A DNA stretch of 28,701 bases from Conexivisphaerales archaeon (GTDB taxonomy: Archaea > Thermoproteota > Nitrososphaeria > Conexivisphaerales > DTJL01): the NCBI GenBank assembly GCA_049509455.1, contig JBEKZX010000017.1, positions 1 through 28,701 on the forward strand, in the 5' to 3' direction. The notes beneath the pieces were generated by a model. The model saw only the letters and a program-made list of their open reading frames with translations, searched no databases and had not been told where the DNA came from. Shown in pieces: positions 9,783 to 19,045 of this stretch. How positions within the stretch are numbered: the first letter of the stretch is position 1; the number at the start of each line of letters is the position of its first letter. A program made the translations under genes and the position numbers.

Positions 9783-11039
9783 CTAGTTGACGGTTTCGCC
9801 GGGGCGACCGTTCCAGTCCTTGACGGTCCTATGGGGGAAGACCTTCGTCCCGTTGAAGACGCAGCCTTCGCCGACGTCCACGTCGTCGCCGAGGACGGAG
9901 AGTCCGACGACCCATGTGGGCTTCTCTCTGCTGGACCTTATCCGCGTGTGCCTGCCGACGATGCTCTCTCGAACTTCGGCGCCTTCGCCGACGTCGACCC
10001 TATCCATCAGGGAGGAGTTCTCGATGGTCACACCGTCTCCGACGATGCAGAAGTTGTCGATGCAGGAGCTCCTGATGATCGTGCCGTCGCCGATCTGGCA
10101 GTGGCGGCCTATGAGGACGGGACCCTCCAGCTTGATCTTGCCCTCCTTCACCTTCCTGAGGATGACCCTCCTCCTCTTCTCGGACTCGGGCGAGTTGCCC
10201 TTTATCCAGACATCCTTCATGCCGAGCACGGGCTCGCCAAGGTAGAACGAAGTCCTTGGGCCGATCAGGACCTCCCCCATGGTGCTGAGGTACCCCCGAG
10301 GCGTCCCCACGTCAAACCATTCGCCCTTCAGCATATAGCCGTAGACGGGCTGACCGCTCTCCGTCATGAACGGGATGAAGTCCAGGCCGAAGTCGAGGCG
10401 CTTCCTGCCGCGTATCATCTCTCCGACCCGCGGATCGTCGAAAATCCTGCGCACTTCGGGAGAAAGAAGGTAGATGCCCGTGTTGGCTAGGTTCGACGGG
10501 GCCTCCTCCTTCTTGGGCTTCTCAACGAAACGCCTTATCCTTCCCTCCTTGGTGACGTCGGCCACGCCATAGCCTTCCACGTCCTGCACAGGCGTCAGGA
10601 CCACGGTCAGGGCGGCCTTCCTCTTTTCGTGGAATGACAGGAGGTCGGCGAGGTCGAGGTCGAAGAGGTTGTCTCCCTGCACTACTATGACCGGCGAGTC
10701 CACTTCAAAATACTCCATGTTGATGCGCACTGAGTCCGCGCTCCCGACGTCGTCGACGTTGGGCTGGTACTTGATGTGGACCCGTGGCGAGATGCCGTGT
10801 TCCGCCGAGAACCCCGTGCCGTCCTTGAAGTAGTCCATGAGCGAGACGTAGTTGACGTATCCCTTCACGCCCATGATGAAGTCCTTCACGCCCTGCTGCG
10901 CCAGCTCAGCTACGGCGAACTCCACCATGGGCTTGCAGAAGATTCGCACGACGGCCTTCGAGACCTCGGCCGTGAGGGGTTTGAGCCGCTTGGCCTCCCC
11001 GCCCACGGGTATTATGGCCCTGAGATCAGAAGGGTTCAA
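9783..11039 (-). CDS. Sugar-1-phosphate nucleotidyltransferase (NDP-sugar pyrophosphorylase) with a C-terminal left-handed beta-helix
   Basis: IPVGGEAKRLKPLT (variant of GGxGTRL), QGDN, FVEKP, NTGIY and WFDVGTP, then hexapeptide repeats (IGRHCQIGDG, VDVGEGAEV). Confidence 0.92.
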   Translation of the reverse strand: MNPSDLRAIIPVGGEAKRLKPLTAEVSKAVVRIFCKPMVEFAVAELAQQGVKDFIMGVKGYVNYVSLMDYFKDGTGFSAEHGISPRVHIKYQPNVDDVGSADSVRINMEYFEVDSPVIVVQGDNLFDLDLADLLSFHEKRKAALTVVLTPVQDVEGYGVADVTKEGRIRRFVEKPKKEEAPSNLANTGIYLLSPEVRRIFDDPRVGEMIRGRKRLDFGLDFIPFMTESGQPVYGYMLKGEWFDVGTPRGYLSTMGEVLIGPRTSFYLGEPVLGMKDVWIKGNSPESEKRRRVILRKVKEGKIKLEGPVLIGRHCQIGDGTIIRSSCIDNFCIVGDGVTIENSSLMDRVDVGEGAEVRESIVGRHTRIRSSREKPTWVVGLSVLGDDVDVGEGCVFNGTKVFPHRTVKDWNGRPGETVN

Positions 11040-11056
11040 TTCAACCCGACTAATCC

Positions 11057-11084
11057 ATATATACGCAGGAGGAGGCGTTTATCC
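11057..11084. promoter_or_regulatory. Back-to-back TATA-like boxes for the nucleotidyltransferase (-) and GH57 (+) genes
   Basis: ATATATA at 11057-11063 and TTTATC at 11078-11083 in the 69-nt divergent gap. A GGAGGGAGG SD precedes ATG 11109. Confidence 0.45.
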
Positions 11085-11108
11085 TTGTCTGAGGGAGGGA
11101 GGCACGAA

Positions 11109-12656
11109 ATGAAGAGCGTCCTGCTCATGTTCGAGGTTCACCAGCCGTTCAGGCTCAAGAGGGACTTCCTCTGGGCGAAGAGGGCCTTCAGGAAGCTCGA
11201 GAAGGGAGGGCTCCTGGAGCACTATTTTGACCTTCGAGCGGACAGGGAGATTTTCGAAAGGGCGAGCAGGAAGTGTTACGTTCCGGCCAACGCCGCCCTC
11301 CTCAAATCGATAGAGGCCCAAGAGGACGAGGGGAAGCCGGCCAAGGTATCCTTCAGCTTGTCCGGGACATTCCTAGACCAGTGCGAGCTCTACGGGAAGG
11401 AGGTGCTGGAGGGCTTCAAGCAGCTCGCCGGGACGGGAAGGGTGGAGTTCCTCGGCCAGACCTACTACCATTCATTGAGCTCTCTTTATCAGGACAAGAG
11501 CGAATTCAAAGAAGAGGTGGAGGAGCACAGCAGGGCGGTGAAGGAGCTCCTCGGGGCGTCCACTTCGACTTTTGAGAACACGGAACTCGTGTACAACAAC
11601 TCGATAGCGAAGGCCGTGGCCGGTCTCGGGTTCCGCTCCATCTGCACCGAGGGCGCAGACAGGGTGCTGGGGGAGCGCTCGCCCAACTACCTATACGATG
11701 CGCCGGAAGGCGGAGGCATCAAGGTCCTACTGAGGAATTACAGGCTGACCGACGACGTGGGGTTCAGGTTCTCCGACAGGAGGTGGAGCGAATGGCCGCT
11801 CACCGCCGAGAAGTATGCGTCCTGGCTGTCGACCGCGGAGGGAGAATGTGTGTGCATCTTTCCCGACTACGAGACCTTCGGCGAGCATCACTGGCCCGAG
11901 ACCGGGATACACGACTTCCTGGCGTACCTGCCAGGAGAGATCCTGAAGAGGCCGGACCTGAAGATGGAGCTTCCCTCCGAATTCGTCAGGGGGCATCGGT
12001 CGGCGGGGGTCCTGGACGTGCCGGAGCCGCAGACCCTGTCCTGGGCCGACATAGAGCGCGGCACGGGAAGCTGGATAGGGAACTCCATGCAGTGGGCTTA
12101 TTTCACGTCAGTGAGGGAGATGGAGCCCCTCGTGCGGGAGTCAGGTTCCCGAGAAGTGATCCGGACCTGGCGGCTCCTCGGCGTCAGCGATCATCTTTAC
12201 TATATGTTCACGGGAGGCGGAGGTCCCGGCACGGTCCATTCCTACTTTAGCCCCTACGGGTCGGCGGCGGAAGCTTTCGTCAGCGCCCAGGCGGCCGCCC
12301 TGGATTTCGAATGGAGGGTGAGGGAGCTGGTGGACGCGGCCAACGAGCCCTTTGACTTCCACAGGGAGGAGGGCGAAACCGGATACATCGGCGTCCGCGC
12401 CTGGAGCCTGGTCGGGTTCCGGGACTCCCTGACGAAGGCGCCGGCGGAGAGCCTCCTCTTCCATCAGAAAAGGGGAGACTTCGAAGCTTGGGCCATGGGG
12501 AGCCTGAAGGACGAACCCCTCGCCAAGGAACTGGCGGCGCTCAAGCTGAGGAGGCTACCGAGCGCGACGCTTCGGTCGGAGCTTGTCAGGATAGTGGCGA
12601 AACACCTGAAGGAAAGGAAACTATACCTCAAAGCCCTGGGGCTGGCGATCGAGTGA
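11109..12656 (+). CDS. GH57 alpha-amylase-type glycoside hydrolase with a C-terminal DUF5752-like domain (515 aa)
   Basis: GH57 conserved regions: EVHQP, GQTYYH, FENTEL (Glu nucleophile), PDYETFGEH (Asp acid/base) and SDHLYYM. The likely start is ATG 11109 because the track extension overlaps the opposite-strand gene. Confidence 0.95.
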   Translation: MKSVLLMFEVHQPFRLKRDFLWAKRAFRKLEKGGLLEHYFDLRADREIFERASRKCYVPANAALLKSIEAQEDEGKPAKVSFSLSGTFLDQCELYGKEVLEGFKQLAGTGRVEFLGQTYYHSLSSLYQDKSEFKEEVEEHSRAVKELLGASTSTFENTELVYNNSIAKAVAGLGFRSICTEGADRVLGERSPNYLYDAPEGGGIKVLLRNYRLTDDVGFRFSDRRWSEWPLTAEKYASWLSTAEGECVCIFPDYETFGEHHWPETGIHDFLAYLPGEILKRPDLKMELPSEFVRGHRSAGVLDVPEPQTLSWADIERGTGSWIGNSMQWAYFTSVREMEPLVRESGSREVIRTWRLLGVSDHLYYMFTGGGGPGTVHSYFSPYGSAAEAFVSAQAAALDFEWRVRELVDAANEPFDFHREEGETGYIGVRAWSLVGFRDSLTKAPAESLLFHQKRGDFEAWAMGSLKDEPLAKELAALKLRRLPSATLRSELVRIVAKHLKERKLYLKALGLAIE

Positions 12657-14611
12657 GCAGCGGGACAACTTTCGGACGAGACGTGCTGGGGGACTATGAG
12701 CTCTCCAAGTCCAAAGAGTGGCTGCTGACGAACGGGCTGGGAGGATATGCTTCGTCTACGGTCACGGGGGCCAACTCCCGGGGTTATCATGGCCTGCTGG
12801 TGGCCTCGATCCCGCCCGGCCTCACCCGCGTTCTGCTGCTTTCGAAGGTCGAGGACGAGGCGCGCACCTCAGAGGGCGCGTTCCCCTTGTCGACGAACCA
12901 CTATCCCGGCGCGGTTTATCCGCATGGCTTCATGTATCTCCAGGGGTTCGACCTCCTGCCGTGCCCGACCTGGAGGTATTCGTTCGGGGGCACGATCATC
13001 CGCAAGGCCGTCAGGATGCCCCAGGGAGTCAACGCGGTGGAGGTGTCATACTCCATCGAGGATGGGCCGGGGCCGGTGGAGCTGACGGTCAAGCCCATGG
13101 TCAACCACAGAGGATTCCATGACAGGACCAAAGAGGACAGCGGCCTTTCCTTCACCCAGGTGGTCTCGGGCGCCAGCGTCAGGGTGGATTCGTCCGCTGG
13201 CTCCCCCAGCCTGTTCCTGCGATGCGATAGTGGGAGCTACGAGGAAAAGGGGGAATGGTACAGAAACATGCTCTACGACGAAGAGGAGCTTCGAGGCTAC
13301 CCCTTCAGTGAGGATCATTTCAGCCCCGGCACCTTCCGGGCGCTGCTGGAGGTCGGCAGGGGCATGGCGCTCACCGCCTCCGTCGAGCCGACCGCAGCTT
13401 TCCCTGATGAGCCCCCACAGGCGCCTGGAGTCGGCGGGTACAAGCCGAGGTTCGACGTCCCCATTTCACTGCTTGCGTTGCTCACATTGGCCTCCCGTCA
13501 GTTCGTGGTGACGCCGCCGGGCTCCGAAGATCGCACCGTCGTGGCCGGGTATCACTGGTTCGGTGAGTATGGCCGCGATGCTGCCGTCTCCCTTCCAGGG
13601 CTCCTCCTGGCGACGGGAAGGGAGGGTGACGCGAGGGCCGTGATGAAGAGATTCTTCAAGAGGCAGCGCGGGGGCCTCCTTCCCGTGCTGCTGAACGGCG
13701 AGGAGTGCTCTTGGGCGTCGGTGGACACCTCTCTCTTCTTCGTGAACGCCGTGAAGAAGTACTACGACAGCACGGGCGACGCTTCCTTCTTGAAGGAGGT
13801 CTGGGGCGGGCTGGCATCGACCATGGGGTCCTACATGAAGGGAACGGACTTCGGCATCAGGATGGCCGACGACGGCCTCATAGAGGCCAACACGGAGGAG
13901 CTCCCCCTGACTTGGATGGACGCGACCGTGGGCGGAGCCCCGGCCGTCCGCCGGCTCTCCAAGTGCATCGAAATCAACGCCCTCTGGTACAACGCCCTGA
14001 GGGCCATGGAGGCACTAGCACAGGCGGCGGGTGCCAAGGGAGGATACCTCGAGCTGGCCAAGAGGGTGAAGGAGTCGTTCAACGGCGCGTTCTGGAACGC
14101 AGAGGGAGGATACCTCTACGACTCAGTGGGGGGAGGGAAGAGGGATGGCTCGATAAGGCCCAATCAAATCTTCTCCATCAGCCTGCCCTACCCGGTGCTG
14201 GAGCGGCAGAGGTGGAACAGAGTGCTCTACGTCGTCCAGGAGCACCTGTACACTCCCTTCGGCCTGAGGAGCCTCTCCCGCGCCGACCCTGGCTATAGGG
14301 GGATCTACGCCGGAGGCCCTCCCCAGAGGGATACCGCGTATCACAACGGCACCGTGTGGTCCTGGCTCGCCGGGCCCTACATTTCAGCAGCCTGCAAGGC
14401 CAGAAGCGGCCAGCGCGACCTCCTAATTAGGAGGATGCTGGACGCTTTCCTGGGACACATAAACGACGCTGGGCTGGGAAGCGTGTCGGAGATCTTCGAC
14501 GGCGACGCCCCTCACCACCCCCGCGGCTGCATAGCCCAGGCTTGGAGCGTGGCCGAGCTGCTGAGGTCCTACGAGGAAGACTTAAGGAAGGCTCGGGCCC
14601 CCGTTCAGTAG
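12653..14611 (+). CDS. Amylo-alpha-1,6-glucosidase / archaeal-type glycogen debranching enzyme (GDE_N + GDE_C)
   Basis: EWLLTNGLGGYAS, AGYHWF..YGRD, TWMDA, EINALWYNAL, RPNQI, YHNGTVW and EIFDG...GCIAQAWSVAE. The GTG 12653 start overlaps the GH57 stop (GTGA). Confidence 0.95.
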   Translation: MSSGTTFGRDVLGDYELSKSKEWLLTNGLGGYASSTVTGANSRGYHGLLVASIPPGLTRVLLLSKVEDEARTSEGAFPLSTNHYPGAVYPHGFMYLQGFDLLPCPTWRYSFGGTIIRKAVRMPQGVNAVEVSYSIEDGPGPVELTVKPMVNHRGFHDRTKEDSGLSFTQVVSGASVRVDSSAGSPSLFLRCDSGSYEEKGEWYRNMLYDEEELRGYPFSEDHFSPGTFRALLEVGRGMALTASVEPTAAFPDEPPQAPGVGGYKPRFDVPISLLALLTLASRQFVVTPPGSEDRTVVAGYHWFGEYGRDAAVSLPGLLLATGREGDARAVMKRFFKRQRGGLLPVLLNGEECSWASVDTSLFFVNAVKKYYDSTGDASFLKEVWGGLASTMGSYMKGTDFGIRMADDGLIEANTEELPLTWMDATVGGAPAVRRLSKCIEINALWYNALRAMEALAQAAGAKGGYLELAKRVKESFNGAFWNAEGGYLYDSVGGGKRDGSIRPNQIFSISLPYPVLERQRWNRVLYVVQEHLYTPFGLRSLSRADPGYRGIYAGGPPQRDTAYHNGTVWSWLAGPYISAACKARSGQRDLLIRRMLDAFLGHINDAGLGSVSEIFDGDAPHHPRGCIAQAWSVAELLRSYEEDLRKARAPVQ

Positions 14612-14615
14612 AACT

Positions 14616-15656
14616 TTGAAATCAACCATTAGGTTCGAGAAGGAGGTATCCGAAGTGAGGCTGCTAGACCCCTCGAAAGGTTTCAACGAGAGCGTCCAGA
14701 GCATTGAGCGGCGCAGGGACAGCCTACTGGAAAGGTGGTGCAGGATCAACGTCCAGAGGGCATCTAGGCCCACGGACGTGACCAAGGACTCGTCCCTGGC
14801 GGAGCTGGCGAAGTCGACGGAGAAGGGCTGCCTCTTCTGCCCGGAAAACATCGAAAGGACCACGCCGAAGTTCCCGCCCTTCCTTGTGCCTGAGGGGAGG
14901 ATCAAAGTTGGCGGCTCCACCGTCTTCCCTAACCTCTTCCCGTTCGCCCGGCTGCACGCTGTAGTGACCCTGACGGAGAAGCACTTCGTGCCCCTGGAGG
15001 AGATGGAGGCCGAGATCATCGGAGACGGGCTGCGCGCCTCATTGGAGCTGGCGAAGGTCCTGAACACAAAGGACCCCCAGTCGAAGTACGTCTCGGTCAA
15101 CTGGAACTGCCTCCCCACCGCGGCGGCCTCTCTGATGCATCCGCACTTCCAGGTGGTGGCCGACAGCAGGCCGACGAAATACGTCGCGGAGGCCGTCTCC
15201 GCAAGCGAATCATACCTGAGGAGGAACGGCAGCAGCTACTGGTCGGACCTCATCGAGTCGGAGGAGGGCGGAGAGAGGTTCGTCGCCAGAGAGGGGTGCT
15301 TTGCCTGGGTGGCCAGCTTCGCCCCGATGGGGAACAACGAAGTCGTGGGCATCGCGAACGGGACGTCCCAGCTGCTGGGGCTCCACGAAGGCGAGGTGAA
15401 CGACTTGGCGAAGGGGCTATCGAAGATCCTCAAGGCCTACAGCCGCCTAGGTCTTCAGGGGCTCAACATGGCGGTGTACTCGGAGCCGCTGGCCCAGGAG
15501 ACGAAGAGGTTCTCGCTCCACGCCCGTCTGATATCCAGGCCGAAGTTGAAGCTGCTCTACACCTCCGACGCCGGGTTCATGGAGAGGCTCCACGACGAGG
15601 TCATCGTAGAGACCATGCCCGAGGCCGTGGCGGCCGAGCTAAGGGCCCCCTACTAG
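14616..15656 (+). CDS. GalT-like HIT-superfamily hexose-1-phosphate nucleotidyltransferase
   Basis: RASRP, Zn-binding CLFC, FPNLFPF and catalytic SLMHPHFQ (HxHxQ). Confidence 0.88.
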   Translation: MKSTIRFEKEVSEVRLLDPSKGFNESVQSIERRRDSLLERWCRINVQRASRPTDVTKDSSLAELAKSTEKGCLFCPENIERTTPKFPPFLVPEGRIKVGGSTVFPNLFPFARLHAVVTLTEKHFVPLEEMEAEIIGDGLRASLELAKVLNTKDPQSKYVSVNWNCLPTAAASLMHPHFQVVADSRPTKYVAEAVSASESYLRRNGSSYWSDLIESEEGGERFVAREGCFAWVASFAPMGNNEVVGIANGTSQLLGLHEGEVNDLAKGLSKILKAYSRLGLQGLNMAVYSEPLAQETKRFSLHARLISRPKLKLLYTSDAGFMERLHDEVIVETMPEAVAAELRAPY

Positions 15657-16894
15657 CGAATGGCCTTCTTGTAGACCTTCAGCGTCTCGGAGGCGGCCCT
15701 GTCCCAAGTGAAGTACTGTTCCACCCTGCGCCTCCCGTTGGCGCCCCAGGCCTTCGCCTGATCGGGGTCGCGAAGCGCCTCGTCGATGCCCCAGGCGATG
15801 TCGGCGGGGTCGGAGCCGTTGACGTGCATCCCGCACCTTTCGGGGCCGTGCGGTACCACCTGCTCCACAAAGCCAACCACCCCCCTTGCGCCGGCGACGA
15901 CGGGCTTGGACATCGCCATGGCTTCGAGGGTGACGATCCCGAATGGCTCGTAGGTGGAGGGGAAGACGCACAAATCCGAGGCCGCATAGTGGAGTATCCT
16001 CTGCTCTTCGGGGACGAACTCCAGCCGGAGCTTCACCGACCCAGAAAGGCCGAGGCCATCGACGAGGGCCATCACTTCCCTCTCGAGCTCGCCGCTGGCG
16101 AGGACCACCAGCTTCGTCTTGGGCTGGCGCTTAACGACGTCGGGCATTGCTTGTATTAGCGAAAGGATGCCCTTGACGGGGGAGAGCCTCCCGACGAAGA
16201 GGAGCATCTTCTCGTCGGGGGCGATGCCGTAGCTGCTGCGCAGGGCCGCGACGTCTTCACGCTTGACCTTGGCTGGGTCGTATCTTGAGGGGTCCACGCC
16301 GTTCCATACGACGTCGATCTTCCCTTTCGGCCATGCGTGGCGGACAAGGTCCTCTTTCATCAAGTTGCTAACCGTGATTATGCGGTCGGCGCTCTCGGCG
16401 GCCGCCTCCTCTATTCTCGAAACGGCGTCGGAGCCCTGGCCGTTGGTCCTCCCCCACTCGGTGGAGTGGACGTGGAAGACGGCGGGTAGCTTAGCGTCGT
16501 GCTGCACCGTGATCCCCGCCAAGGCGCTGAGCCAGTCGTGGTAGCAGACCATGTCGAATCTTCTCTCCTCCTTTTCGACCAATTCGTTGAGGAACTTCGC
16601 GGCCGAAAGCGTATTGTAGACCTCGATGTCAGAGAAGAACCTCAGGCCGGAGCCCCAGCGGTTAAGGCCGTCCGACGCGATGAGGGAGAGCCCCTTGGTC
16701 ATGTCCATTATCAGGGGCCTGTGGACTTCGACGCCCTCCATGACTTCCCGAGTGGGAAGACCTCCCCTATTGAGGGTGAAGACGGACACGTCATAGCCCA
16801 GCTTGACCAGCCTGGGGGCCATGTTCTGGGCGTAGGTGCCGAGCCCTCCGACGAGCGAGGGAGGGTACTCCCATACAAAGAAGCCTATTCTCAT
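15653..16894 (-). CDS. GT4 (GT-B) glycosyltransferase, Rv3032/glycogen-synthase-like, paralogue 1 (413 aa)
   Basis: MRIGFFVWEYPPSLVGGLG, HDW, HSTEWGR, VWNGVD, FVGRLSPVKG, YEPFGIVTLEAMA and the terminal helix WDRAASETLKVY. Start reassigned to ATG 16894. Confidence 0.95.
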   Translation of the reverse strand: MRIGFFVWEYPPSLVGGLGTYAQNMAPRLVKLGYDVSVFTLNRGGLPTREVMEGVEVHRPLIMDMTKGLSLIASDGLNRWGSGLRFFSDIEVYNTLSAAKFLNELVEKEERRFDMVCYHDWLSALAGITVQHDAKLPAVFHVHSTEWGRTNGQGSDAVSRIEEAAAESADRIITVSNLMKEDLVRHAWPKGKIDVVWNGVDPSRYDPAKVKREDVAALRSSYGIAPDEKMLLFVGRLSPVKGILSLIQAMPDVVKRQPKTKLVVLASGELEREVMALVDGLGLSGSVKLRLEFVPEEQRILHYAASDLCVFPSTYEPFGIVTLEAMAMSKPVVAGARGVVGFVEQVVPHGPERCGMHVNGSDPADIAWGIDEALRDPDQAKAWGANGRRRVEQYFTWDRAASETLKVYKKAIR

Positions 16895-16914
16895 CCAATC
16901 ACCTTGAATCTCCA

Positions 16915-18153
16915 CTAACTGCCGCGGGCCCCCTGAGCCGTCGACGAAGGTTTCCAGGAGCCTGCGTCGTACTCCTTCAAAGTCCGCCCGTATATAGATG
17001 TGGTCAGAGATGCTATGTTGGACCAACTGTAGACGGAGATCCTCTTCGAAGCCTTAGTGCGGAGGGAGTCGGCGTAGGACGGCGAGGAGAGGACGGCCAC
17101 AATGCCGTCGGCGAGGGAGGCCGGGTTGGGCTGGACGAACTGGGCAGTCTCGCCGTTCTGAACTATCTCGCTCAGGCCTCCGGAGCCTATCGTGACGATT
17201 GGCGCCCCTGCGGCCATAGCCTCCAGGGCGACGATGCCGAAGGGCTCATAGAGGGAGGGGATTGCGTTCACGTCGGCGACGCGGAAGAGGCCCCTAAGCT
17301 GCTCCGAGTCGAGGAAGCCGGTCACGTAGACGCTGTCGGAGACGCCGAGCTCCTTGGCCCTGTTGATGAGGTTCTCCTTCAGGTAGCCTTCACCAACGAA
17401 GACGAATTTGGCCGGGGCGCGACGGAGGACGGACGGGACCGCCTCCATCAGGAGGCTCACGCCCTTCTCGTGCACCAGCCTCCCCACGTAGAGGACCAGC
17501 CTTTCGTCGGGCCGGGCGAACGTCGCCCTCAACGCGGCGGTATCGAGAGGCCCACGGAAGGGAGCGGGGTCTATCCCGTTCGGGACGACGTCGATCTTCT
17601 CGCGGCGCACGCCGAGCGCCTCCGTGACCTCTTTCACCATGAAGTTGCTGCAGCAGACGATCCTCCACGATTCACTGGTGAGCCAGGACTCTTCGGAGCT
17701 TATCATCCTCTGGTAGTCGTCGTAGATACCGCCTCTCCGGCCTTTCTCAGTAGAGTGTATCGTGGAGACGAGCGGGAGGCGGAACATGTGCTTGAGCCCT
17801 ATGGCGGCGTTGGCCACCAGCCAGTCGTGGGCATGTATCACCCTGATCCTGCCGTTCGAGGAGCGGATGATCTCGGCCGCGCGCTTCTGCATGTTGACGT
17901 TCATCATGGAGATCCAGGTGGCGAAGTTCGGGGTGGGATAGCTGTAGGAGTCCACGCGGTCCACCAAGACGCCGCGATCCGATTCATGGGCCGGGGCGCC
18001 GGGGAAGTCGCAGGTGACGACATGGACCTTAACGCCCAGCCGCGACAGCTCCCTAGAGAGGTTGTAAACGTGAGGGGCAATCCCCCCGACGGTCCTGGGC
18101 GGGTACTCCCACGACAACATGGTGACCTCGTATCCTGGCAAACCCTTAGGCAC
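16915..18153 (-). CDS. GT4 (GT-B) glycosyltransferase, Rv3032/glycogen-synthase-like, paralogue 2
   Basis: LSWEYPPRTVGGIA, HAHDW, HSTEKGR, VPNGID, YVGRLVHEKG and YEPFGIVALEAMA. Confidence 0.95.
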   Translation of the reverse strand: MPKGLPGYEVTMLSWEYPPRTVGGIAPHVYNLSRELSRLGVKVHVVTCDFPGAPAHESDRGVLVDRVDSYSYPTPNFATWISMMNVNMQKRAAEIIRSSNGRIRVIHAHDWLVANAAIGLKHMFRLPLVSTIHSTEKGRRGGIYDDYQRMISSEESWLTSESWRIVCCSNFMVKEVTEALGVRREKIDVVPNGIDPAPFRGPLDTAALRATFARPDERLVLYVGRLVHEKGVSLLMEAVPSVLRRAPAKFVFVGEGYLKENLINRAKELGVSDSVYVTGFLDSEQLRGLFRVADVNAIPSLYEPFGIVALEAMAAGAPIVTIGSGGLSEIVQNGETAQFVQPNPASLADGIVAVLSSPSYADSLRTKASKRISVYSWSNIASLTTSIYGRTLKEYDAGSWKPSSTAQGARGS

Positions 18154-18784
18154 CCCTCTGAAGGTCTCTGGCCTCCCGGTATGCCCTCAGCGTGTCGTCG
18201 ACCCACGAGGGCGAGGAAGGGTCCACCACCCTCACCTTCGAGGGCGGTACGTTGTGAAGCGCCTCGACCTGGGACTTTAGGGTAGCCGAGGCGGTGATCG
18301 CGACCGCCGATTCGAAGAGCCCGAGCCATTCGAGCCCCCTGACGCAGGAGCTGAGGGGAGATGACGGTTCGCGCGACCTCTGTTCCTCCAGAGAGTGAAC
18401 TGTGAACACGAATGGAAGGCCCAGCGCCTTCTTGAGGCCTACGGCGGCGGATACGAAGTGCCAGTCATGGACGTCAATGACATCTATGCCACCCGAAGGA
18501 GAGTAGAAGATGTCGGCCGCGACCCTCTGGGCCTCGGAGCAGAGCGACAGGGACCAAGTCAGCACATTGAGGTGAGGGTCTACGGGGTTGTGAGTCCAAT
18601 GGAGTTGAATCTTGGGCGATACCGCCTCGGTGGCAGGGCGGGCCTCGTGGAAGGATATGACGTGCACCGTCCCCTCCCTTCCAGACACCTCATGGGCGAG
18701 CCGCTCTACGTAGTAGGCGAGCTCTCCCATGACCCTGGGCGGGTACTCCCAAGCCAGGATGGCGGTACGAAGGTGCGAAGTCAA
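18146..18784 (-). CDS. GT4 N-terminal-domain-only protein (donor-binding domain absent), paralogue 3 (212 aa)
   Basis: LAWEYPP, DVHDWH and TVHSLEEQR are present. The GRL..EKG and EPFG...E motifs are absent. It ends in WVDDTLRAYREA, matching the terminal helix of paralogue 1 (WDRAASETLKVYKKA). Confidence 0.85.
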   Translation of the reverse strand: MTSHLRTAILAWEYPPRVMGELAYYVERLAHEVSGREGTVHVISFHEARPATEAVSPKIQLHWTHNPVDPHLNVLTWSLSLCSEAQRVAADIFYSPSGGIDVIDVHDWHFVSAAVGLKKALGLPFVFTVHSLEEQRSREPSSPLSSCVRGLEWLGLFESAVAITASATLKSQVEALHNVPPSKVRVVDPSSPSWVDDTLRAYREARDLQRGA

Positions 18785-18790
18785 TTTGCA

Positions 18791-19045
18791 TCATGTGAAA
18801 AGAGATGAAACTCGAATGATCCCGTTCCCGGTGAGGAAGTATCGGGTTACGCCCCCATGGTCTACCGCGGAGCCGAGGTACCCCGCCCTGGTGTGGTCGG
18901 CGATGATCTTCTGAACGTCGACGACGGGGATGCCTGTCAGCATGGCCATCTCCTCCACGCTTTTGCCGGTCTTCCCCATTATGGCGCCGGCGTTGTGCAT
19001 AGCTAGGAGGAGCTTCTGTTGGGGCGAAATATCGGAATCGTTCAA
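18791..19045 (-). CDS. Small winged helix-turn-helix-like protein (84 aa)
   Basis: QKLLLAM...KSVEEMAMLTGIPVVDVQKIIADHTRAGYL...RYFLTGNG follows the helix-HTH-wing order with a typical Y-x-LT-x-x-G end. First gene of the GT4 operon. Confidence 0.68.
   Translation of the reverse strand: MNDSDISPQQKLLLAMHNAGAIMGKTGKSVEEMAMLTGIPVVDVQKIIADHTRAGYLGSAVDHGGVTRYFLTGNGIIRVSSLFT

Follow-up and report, generated by a model that had tools for sequence, protein, structure and literature searches.

How are branches put into glycogen by an archaeon that encodes a debranching enzyme and no known branching enzyme? The branching of glycogen in TACK archaea is a stated open question, and it is raised by eight genes at positions 9783-19045 of a 28,701-nucleotide stretch of DNA (hereafter, the window) from a Conexivisphaerales archaeon (GenBank assembly GCA_049509455.1, contig JBEKZX010000017.1). 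The window is contig C50 of genome G000, a 2.05-Mb metagenome-assembled genome (MAG) that consists of 140 contigs and is 95.5% complete. Our analysis indicates that the locus is probably a glycogen cluster, a variant of the Sulfolobus type of TACK archaea in which glycosyltransferases of family GT4 replace the GT5 glycogen synthase GlgA. The genes are identifiable, organized in operons, and conserved in relatives, and the assembly lacks known branching enzymes as well as GT5 and GT3 synthases. The locus sharpens the test of how branches are made without answering the question.

Eight genes form two tight operons and a divergent gene

We assigned families with Pfam and NCBIfam profiles, examined the small proteins through AlphaFold models, and read the gene junctions base by base. 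The sequence and its list of open reading frames (ORFs) contain eight intact ORFs, in the arrangement that a first-pass annotation of the sequence had given (Table 1). They encode a nucleotidyltransferase (NTase), a glycoside hydrolase of family GH57, a debranching enzyme of family GH133 (GDE), a GalT-like protein, two full-length GT4 enzymes (GT4a and GT4b), a half-length GT4 protein (half-GT), and a small winged-helix protein. Seven of these eight identities are backed by profiles and fold models; the exception is the GalT-like protein, which lies under every curated cut-off.

The tight junctions described earlier were likewise confirmed in the sequence. The GTG start of the GDE gene at 12653 overlaps the TGA stop of the GH57 gene at 12654-12656 (GTGA, 12653-12656), the GDE and GalT-like genes are 4 nucleotides (nt) apart (14612-14615), and a CTAG at 15653-15656 provides the stop codons of two convergent genes, those for the GalT-like protein and GT4a. 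On the other strand, 6 nt lie between the winged-helix and half-GT genes, the half-GT and GT4b genes overlap by 8 nt, and GT4b is separated from GT4a by 20 nt. This spacing indicates two tight operons, GH57-GDE-GalT-like on the forward strand and winged-helix-half-GT-GT4b-GT4a on the reverse strand. The NTase gene is divergent from the GH57 gene.

The whole block is syntenic in a genus-mate (G004) and, except for the GalT-like gene, in a member of another genus of the same family (G007). It is therefore not a chance arrangement. These data support the earlier description of an α-glucan (glycogen-type) locus with its own nucleoside diphosphate (NDP)-sugar enzyme and winged-helix protein. The window stretch was also detected in peat metagenomes of many studies. 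Together with the NCBI names of the half-GT homologs (Thaumarchaeota or Nitrososphaerota) and a fit to the Group I.1c features described in PMC10640624, this suggests an uncultured peat archaeon, probably of a non-ammonia-oxidizing Nitrososphaeria/Thaumarchaeota lineage.

Table 1. Features of the glycogen-type locus (positions in the window)
Feature	Position	Strand	Evidence
Sugar-1-phosphate nucleotidyltransferase with C-terminal left-handed β-helix (NTase)	9783-11039	-	PF00483 (NTP_transferase) 7.3e-43; LbH_EIF2B 6e-16
Divergent intergenic region, NTase/GH57	11040-11108		ATATATA at 11057-11063, a possible promoter element
GH57, α-amylase type, with DUF5752 tail	11109-12656 (alternative TTG start 11085)	+	PF03065 (Glyco_hydro_57) 5.6e-82; DUF5752 4.5e-7
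Archaeal GH133 debranching enzyme (GDE)	12653-14611	+	GDE_N 1.9e-71 (240.5 bits); GDE_C 2.4e-111 (372.7 bits)
GalT-like protein (GalT superfamily, HIT fold), 346 aa	14616-15656	+	Weak GalT matches only; PRK11720 1.4e-12
GT4a, full-length retaining GT-B	15653-16894	-	Glyco_transf_4 1e-26 (94.4 bits); Glycos_transf_1 1.3e-33 (116.3 bits)
GT4b, full-length GT4	16915-18153	-	Glyco_transf_4 7e-32 (111.2 bits); Glycos_transf_1 4.7e-40 (137.4 bits)
Half-GT, GT4 N-terminal Rossmann domain plus C-terminal helix, 212 aa	18146-18784	-	Glyco_transf_4 N-domain only, 59.9 bits
Small winged-helix protein, 84 aa	18791-19045	-	First gene of winged-helix-half-GT-GT4b operon; AlphaFold pLDDT 89

The genome lacks known branching enzymes and GT5 or GT3 synthases

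Profile searches of the whole G000 assembly detected no GH13 (PF00128), BE_C helical domain (PF09210), GT3, GH15, or GH77. For the branching enzyme GlgB, neither PF00128 nor TIGR01515 gave a match, and tblastn with the GlgB of a relative found nothing. The GT5 GlgA model TIGR02095 had no match above its cut-off in the genome, the top two being GT4a (85 bits) and GT4b (66.8 bits). The first-pass annotation had reported no recognizable branching enzyme or GT5 synthase at the locus; by whole-genome profiles this holds for all of G000, including any canonical branching enzyme elsewhere, and a GT3 synthase is absent as well. A glycogen phosphorylase (GlgP), in contrast, is present as one short GT35 phosphorylase on contig C24, away from the locus.

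A second GH57 paralog of 447 amino acids (aa) is encoded on contig C130 (G000:C130:12934-13755; L002 1444-2787). Its motifs are MQQP for HQP, NTKL for NTEL, and DTDELG for DYETFGEH, with the nucleophile Glu replaced as in inactive "amylase-like" homologs, and the protein probably has no activity. An ortholog occurs in every family genome checked (G001-G005), including those that bear GlgB. To judge from the gene content, the amylase-type GH57 of the locus is the sole candidate for an active α-glucan transglycosidase in G000.

A canonical branching enzyme might lie in the unassembled 4-5% of the genome, in which case the pathway would be ordinary except for its GT4 synthases. The fragmentation and completeness of the MAG allow for this, and GlgB is present in genus-mates G001-G003 and in G005 (~865-876 bits). 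However, the GlgB-bearing genus-mates hold a different gene set (L127-L129; G001:C9, G002:C88, G003:C187), in which a single GT4 accompanies a canonical GlgB, a weak GH57-like gene, and a phosphorylase, and which contains neither GT4a nor the strong amylase-type GH57. GlgB is also absent from G004 and G007, the two other assemblies with the window-type cluster, and three further families of the order lack it too. It is missing from all of family f3, a second family of the order, in which a closed 1.59-Mb genome carries GT4a, GT4b, GH57, and a GDE-like gene. BE_C was found in no genome of the order. We see only a slight chance that a GlgB has been missed. The differing sets among genus-mates indicate that two alternative glycogen gene sets exist in one genus, providing a natural comparison between GlgB with a single GT4 and GH57, GDE, GT4a, GT4b, and half-GT without GlgB.

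The GH57 enzyme is amylase-type and accompanies a debranching enzyme

The GH57 translation contains the motifs HQP, NTEL, and DYETFGEH. Beyond its lack of the BE_C domain, the protein had no sequence match at E ≤ 0.01 among solved structures, a set that includes GH57 branching enzymes according to a published review (PMC11046441). Both results agree with the earlier call that this GH57 is amylase-type rather than branching-type. Its closest Atlas clusters are archaeal proteins that combine GH57 with DUF5752, and the Atlas stores it in the form that starts at TTG 11085. DUF5752 itself seems to be split. Profile positions 2-108 correspond to the C-terminal tail of GH57 (window 12345-12623), and positions 96-207 match a separate frame of ~104-123 aa on contig C65 (G000:C65:8111-8422; L022 1501-1812), weakly, at 19.5-21.8 bits and below the 23-bit cut-off.

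The GDE protein scored 435.8 bits in the archaeal debranching model TIGR01561 (cut-off, 364.15), with both GDE_N and GDE_C present. The presence of a GH133 amylo-1,6-glucosidase implies branched substrates. In G004 (L019 ~7224, 7839, 8145, 9012), three uncompensated single-base insertions fall in the GDE gene and one in the GalT-like gene, with the six other cluster genes intact; these frameshifts reflect either real decay of degradative genes or assembly error.

The NTase is presumed to be the source of NDP-glucose for the locus. It reaches the cut-off of no NCBIfam equivalog (Arch_glmU, 167 bits; rmlA_long, 146 bits; glgC, 119 bits) and is 52-58% identical to its counterparts in related clusters.

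Two GT4 enzymes take the place of a GT5 synthase

GT4a and GT4b both score above the gathering thresholds for the N- and C-terminal domains of GT4 enzymes; half-GT does so for the N-domain only. The top solved relative of GT4a is the mycobacterial maltose-1-phosphate synthase GlgM (6tvp, 5e-32), and GT4a aligns over its full length with the glycogen synthase GlgA of Pyrococcus abyssi (6e-23). GT4b yields the same solved relatives, with GlgM at 9e-23. Neither enzyme reaches the cut-off of TIGR02149, which describes GlgM and the actinobacterial "GlgA" (GT4a, 176 bits; GT4b, 137.8 bits; cut-off, 302.4 bits). As isolated sequences, both also fall short of TIGR02095 (103.6 and 92.8 bits, respectively; cut-off, 328 bits).

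GT5 enzymes have a K-x-G-G-L loop near the N-terminus with a conserved lysine. This lysine is absent from all three proteins of the locus, which read SLVGGLG (GT4a), RTVGGIA (GT4b), and RVMGELA (half-GT). GRLxxxKG and E-x7-E, ordinary motifs of retaining GT-B enzymes, are readable in both GT4 translations. By these measures, GT4a and GT4b are GT4-family enzymes near the GT4/GT5 border and outside any named equivalog. GT4a is a putative α-1,4-glucan synthase or primer-forming enzyme, and GT4b is a putative glycogen synthase.

In a tree of N-domains, GT4a falls in a single archaeal clade (support, 99), and GT4b groups with sequences from Clostridia, cyanobacteria, Chloroflexota, and Alicyclobacillus (support, 96). 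Two more GT4 groups in the tree come from other glucan clusters. The nearest relatives of GT4a are from Bathyarchaeia (57-61% identity), whereas GT4a of the same-family genome G007 is only 51% identical, which suggests lateral transfer.

One Bathyarchaeota MAG, SKYB16, carries GT4b, half-GT, a small winged-helix gene, GH57, and GT4a together (L027 5386-11296). Its GT4a (61%) and GH57 (57%) exceed those of G007 (51% and 53%) in identity to the window, whereas its GT4b (53%) and half-GT (39%) are no closer to the window than those of G007. This pattern may reflect a transfer of some or all of the module between classes. Bacterial homologs of GT4b (L059-L106) from Clostridia, cyanobacteria, Chloroflexota, and Alicyclobacillus are 40-46% identical, and in several Bacillota loci the homolog is followed directly by a nucleotidyltransferase of ~400 aa. 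This suggests a widespread bacterial pair built around a GT4-type glucan synthase.

The product of the locus could instead be an unbranched or short α-1,4 glucan, or another glucoside, with the GH57-GDE-GalT-like operon mainly processing imported maltodextrin or glycogen. Such a product would fit the lack of an identifiable brancher, the synthesis of a disaccharide phosphate by GlgM, the solitary occurrence of GT4a in many genomes, and the placement of GH57, GDE, and the GalT-like gene in an operon of their own on the opposite strand. However, the GH133 enzyme points to branched substrates, and its loss in Sulfolobus acidocaldarius raises internal glycogen. Moreover, the genome has no GlgE or other GH13 protein for maltose-1-phosphate, and related clusters include GlgB. 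We consider an unbranched product distinctly unlikely.

A half-length GT4 and a winged-helix protein precede GT4b

The "half-GT4" label of the first-pass annotation was borne out by the N-domain-only profile match and by the predicted fold. The high-confidence AlphaFold model of half-GT (pLDDT 88, pTM 0.88) shows one Rossmann domain that ends in a closing helix at the C-terminus, and its fold overlays the N-domains found in MshA, GlgM, sucrose-phosphate synthase, and PaGS. Half-GT has no donor-binding domain, and its presumed role is that of a non-catalytic partner to GT4b.

The half-GT family comprises 17 clusters of 187-214 aa with conserved motifs (alignment A2), and the homologs carry the NCBI names Thaumarchaeota or Nitrososphaerota. 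In the N-domain tree, the half-GTs form one long-branched clade (support, 90). By BLAST identity, half-GT is closer to GT4b (37% versus 23%); the tree neither supports nor opposes an origin from GT4b. A survey of 301 sampled genomes of the phylum, comprising G000 and 300 others, recovered short half-GT ORFs of 206-257 aa that align with the profile from end to end, its terminal helix included; at least 36 of the 300 other genomes have such an ORF. Among the matches listed, a full-length GT4 is usually the immediate neighbor. In the family of the closed 1.59-Mb genome, an ORF of 184-192 aa overlaps the start of GT4b at the place of half-GT (L024 9227-9781, L025 8516-9094). Its alignment to the half-GT profile is collinear but weak (hhalign probability, 19%), and it may be a degenerate half-GT.

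The 84-aa protein at the head of the operon had no Pfam match above noise (RPA_C, 0.037). A Foldseek search with its model returned the winged helices of MarR, TubR, the pNOB8 centromere-binding protein, and Sso10a (TMq 0.74-0.80 for MarR, TubR, and Sso10a), and the model has the H1-H2-H3-wing order of this fold. The earlier winged helix-turn-helix label agrees with the modeled fold. The gene is kept in G004, G007, the Bathyarchaeota MAG, and family f12, and its product is, by its model, a putative regulator.

The GalT-like protein belongs to a clade without a Pfam domain

The call of a GalT-like protein stands at the level of superfamily but not of family. The translation keeps a CxxC zinc motif (CLFC) and an HxHxQ active-site motif (HPHFQ). 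By sequence, the solved structures nearest to it are 1z84 (2e-5), a deposited GalT-like protein that we take to be At5g18200, an ADP-glucose phosphorylase from a plant, and 6k5z (4e-5), a GalT from an archaeon. The Atlas model matches GalT clusters with a TM of 0.77-0.78. Motifs, alignments, and model together place the protein in the GalT/HIT superfamily, whereas the GalT equivalogs are not reached (TIGR00209, 33.5 versus 102 bits; PRK11720, 47.4 versus 448 bits). Homologs have no Pfam domain and are mostly annotated as hypothetical. The gene is present in 53 genomes of the phylum sample and lies directly beside GH57 in several families. We regard the protein as a nucleotidyltransferase or phosphorylase of the GalT superfamily, from a Pfam-less clade, that probably interconverts glucose-1-phosphate (Glc-1-P) and NDP-glucose.

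Relatives across the phylum place half-GT and GT4b beside GlgB

The first-pass annotation had suggested a synteny survey; the one run on the 301 genomes revealed related clusters, the half-GT module, and neighbors of GlgB. None of the 301 genomes had a BE_C match. Canonical GH13 GlgB was found above the cut-off, with scores of >880 bits, in 17 of 301, mostly in one family, so the published claim that TACK archaea have no GH13 branching enzyme is not universal.

Several related clusters hold additional genes. A GH15 glucoamylase gene adjoins the small ORF in G007, and the family f3 clusters contain a short phosphorylase, GH57, a Pfam-less protein of 675 aa, GT4b, and GT4a. Family f12 includes G038, whose genome is closed and 1.5 Mb in size and has the gene order GlgB, small ORF, half-GT, GT4b, and a ROK kinase. 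The GalT-like and GH57 genes are convergent with the GlgB-half-GT-GT4b block, and GT4a is ~5.6 kb off. The G038 GlgB (L120 4067-6040) scored 983 bits with NF003811. In family f12 as a whole, 13 of 25 genomes carry GlgB and all 25 give half-GT profile matches, short half-GT ORFs being confirmed in the loci that we examined.

These arrangements bear on the proposal, made in the first-pass annotation, that one GT4 paralog makes the branch points. A GT4, alone or with half-GT, might form α-1,6 branch points from NDP-glucose, given two deep GT4 paralogs, a half-GT, a debranching enzyme, and no known brancher in the genome. The main argument against this idea is that the half-GT-GT4b module stands alongside a canonical GlgB in G038, with GT4a close by, in a family where about half of the genomes carry GlgB. 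In addition, the GlgB-bearing genus-mates have a single GT4, and both GT4s are nearest to the α-1,4-forming enzymes GlgM and P. abyssi GlgA and display ordinary retaining GT-B motifs. Single-glucose α-1,6 transfer alone would not give glycogen-type branches. The proposal is disfavored, and we regard a GT4 brancher as very improbable.

A family of 640-740 aa proteins without a Pfam or NCBIfam match is found in glucan clusters of several Thermoproteota families (alignment A3; L024 6961-8988, L023 7410-9455, L113 7121-9133, L107 3065-5248, L114 16419-18338, and others). It was considered as a novel brancher, as it corresponds to the slot of GlgB in G038, and was rejected. By hhalign profile comparison, the family, with its 675-aa member, is a divergent GDE_C (GH133-like) enzyme (probability, 90.5%), and it is absent from G000.

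A proposed pathway for glycogen synthesis and breakdown

In the Sulfolobus-type pathway that we favor, the NTase would make NDP-glucose, and α-1,4 chains would be built by GT4a and by GT4b, which is translationally coupled to half-GT; one of the two enzymes might prime and the other elongate. Because their genes overlap, half-GT may be a stoichiometric, non-catalytic partner of GT4b. GH57 would supply 4-α-glucanotransferase activity, α-1,6 branching activity, or both, the former being the step that the stub glucosidase GH133 needs. In breakdown, GH133 would strip α-1,6 stubs, and the distant GT35 phosphorylase would free Glc-1-P. The GalT-like protein could pass the nucleotidyl group back and forth between NDP-glucose and Glc-1-P (or phosphate), with no need for pyrophosphate chemistry, and the winged-helix protein would regulate the operon of the glycosyltransferases. 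The GH15, short phosphorylase, GlgB, and ROK kinase genes of the related clusters favor this interpretation.

Several observations weigh against it. To our knowledge, no member of the clades of GT4a, GT4b, GH57 with DUF5752, or the GalT-like protein has been assayed. In most Bathyarchaeia loci, GT4a stands alone and has no glucan gene at a distance of up to 10 kb; its association with glycogen therefore does not hold everywhere. GH57 co-occurs with canonical GlgB in family f12, and thus the presence of GH57 alone is no sign of branching activity. Finally, in a MAG of this many contigs, absences are not proof.

A more specific reading holds that the winged-helix, half-GT, and GT4b genes encode a conserved unit of three proteins in Thermoproteota, in which a non-catalytic half-GT is the acceptor-binding or priming subunit of a GT4 glycogen synthase, and that GH57 with DUF5752 is the TACK brancher wherever GlgB is absent. 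We offer this combination tentatively and think it unlikely as stated. The locus also brings into view two conserved and unstudied accessory proteins of archaeal glycogen metabolism: half-GT, translationally coupled to GT4b, and the GalT-like protein, coupled to GH57.

Comparison with known systems

A review of the field (PMC11046441; Chem Rev 2024) describes TACK archaea as lacking a branching enzyme and puts forward the GH57 "amylase" for this role. Its section 3.4.1 describes a GT4, GH133, and GH57-amylase cluster in Picrophilus torridus, which substantiates the earlier statement that groupings of GH57, GT4, and a debranching enzyme are known from other glycogen loci. It also suggests that a GT4 beside GH57 in Methanoculleus bourgensis is an uncharacterized glycogen synthase. 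The TACK branching gap, GH57-amylase as its filler, and clusters of GT4, GH133, and GH57 are therefore already known. The non-canonical route of the first-pass annotation is supported in part, in its putative GT4 synthases and lack of a known brancher, but its central inference restates a published hypothesis. The locus adds a good example to those already known and does not define a new pathway. Its fresh elements are the conserved operon that joins a small winged-helix gene to half-GT and GT4b, and the Pfam-less GalT-like partner of GH57.

The closest tested system is the glg cluster of S. acidocaldarius, glgC-gaa-glgX / amyA-glgA (saci_1197-1201: glgX/GH133, gaa/GH15, glgC, amyA/GH57, and glgA/GT5; Lee et al. 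2021, PMC8158581). There, amyA and glgA are required for glycogen accumulation, an amyA null mutant accumulates no glycogen, and GH133 and GH15 act in glycogen degradation; the genes are divided between two operons, and there is no GlgB (PMC8158581). The features of the Sulfolobus type recur in our locus, namely an NDP-sugar pyrophosphorylase, an amylase-type GH57, GH133, a synthase, and no GlgB. In both systems, the NDP-sugar pyrophosphorylase gene adjoins the operon of the GH57 "amylase" and glgP is distant, and S. acidocaldarius is the sole named control genome in which DUF5752 was also found. The two differ in their synthases, a GT5 there and two GT4s plus half-GT here, and in GH15, which is absent from G000. 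Furthermore, GH57 is grouped with the synthase there and with GDE and the GalT-like gene here, and a winged-helix gene heads the glycosyltransferase operon only here.

The clusters of P. torridus and M. bourgensis, compared by published description, share with ours a GT4 of unassigned activity, GH133, and an amylase-type GH57. Unlike our archaeon, they are Euryarchaeota that carry GlgE or GlgB, and half-GT, winged-helix, and GalT-like partners are not described for them. A Methanoregula locus has a GT4a ortholog (47% identity) between GH57 and GDE.

A pairing of GH57 with GT4 is also seen in mycobacteria, where the Rv3032-centered pathway combines GH57 (Rv3031) with the GT4 α-1,4-glucosyltransferase Rv3032 (cited in PMC6355812). 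GlgM is moreover the top solved relative of both window GT4s. In contrast, both score under the TIGR02149 cut-off (176 and 138 versus 302 bits), and our locus is accompanied neither by a GlgE for maltose-1-phosphate nor by methyltransferase or acyltransferase genes of the methylglucose lipopolysaccharide (MGLP) type.

For half-GT, the closest parallel comes from plants. STARCH SYNTHASE 5 (SS5) of Arabidopsis is reportedly a starch-synthase-like protein without the C-terminal GT1 subdomain. Like half-GT, it keeps the acceptor-side N-domain, has lost the donor-binding domain, and is conserved beside full synthases; unlike half-GT, it comes from plants and arose independently, from a GT5 enzyme. 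By analogy, this likeness suggests a non-catalytic role for half-GT in priming or organizing glucan synthesis.

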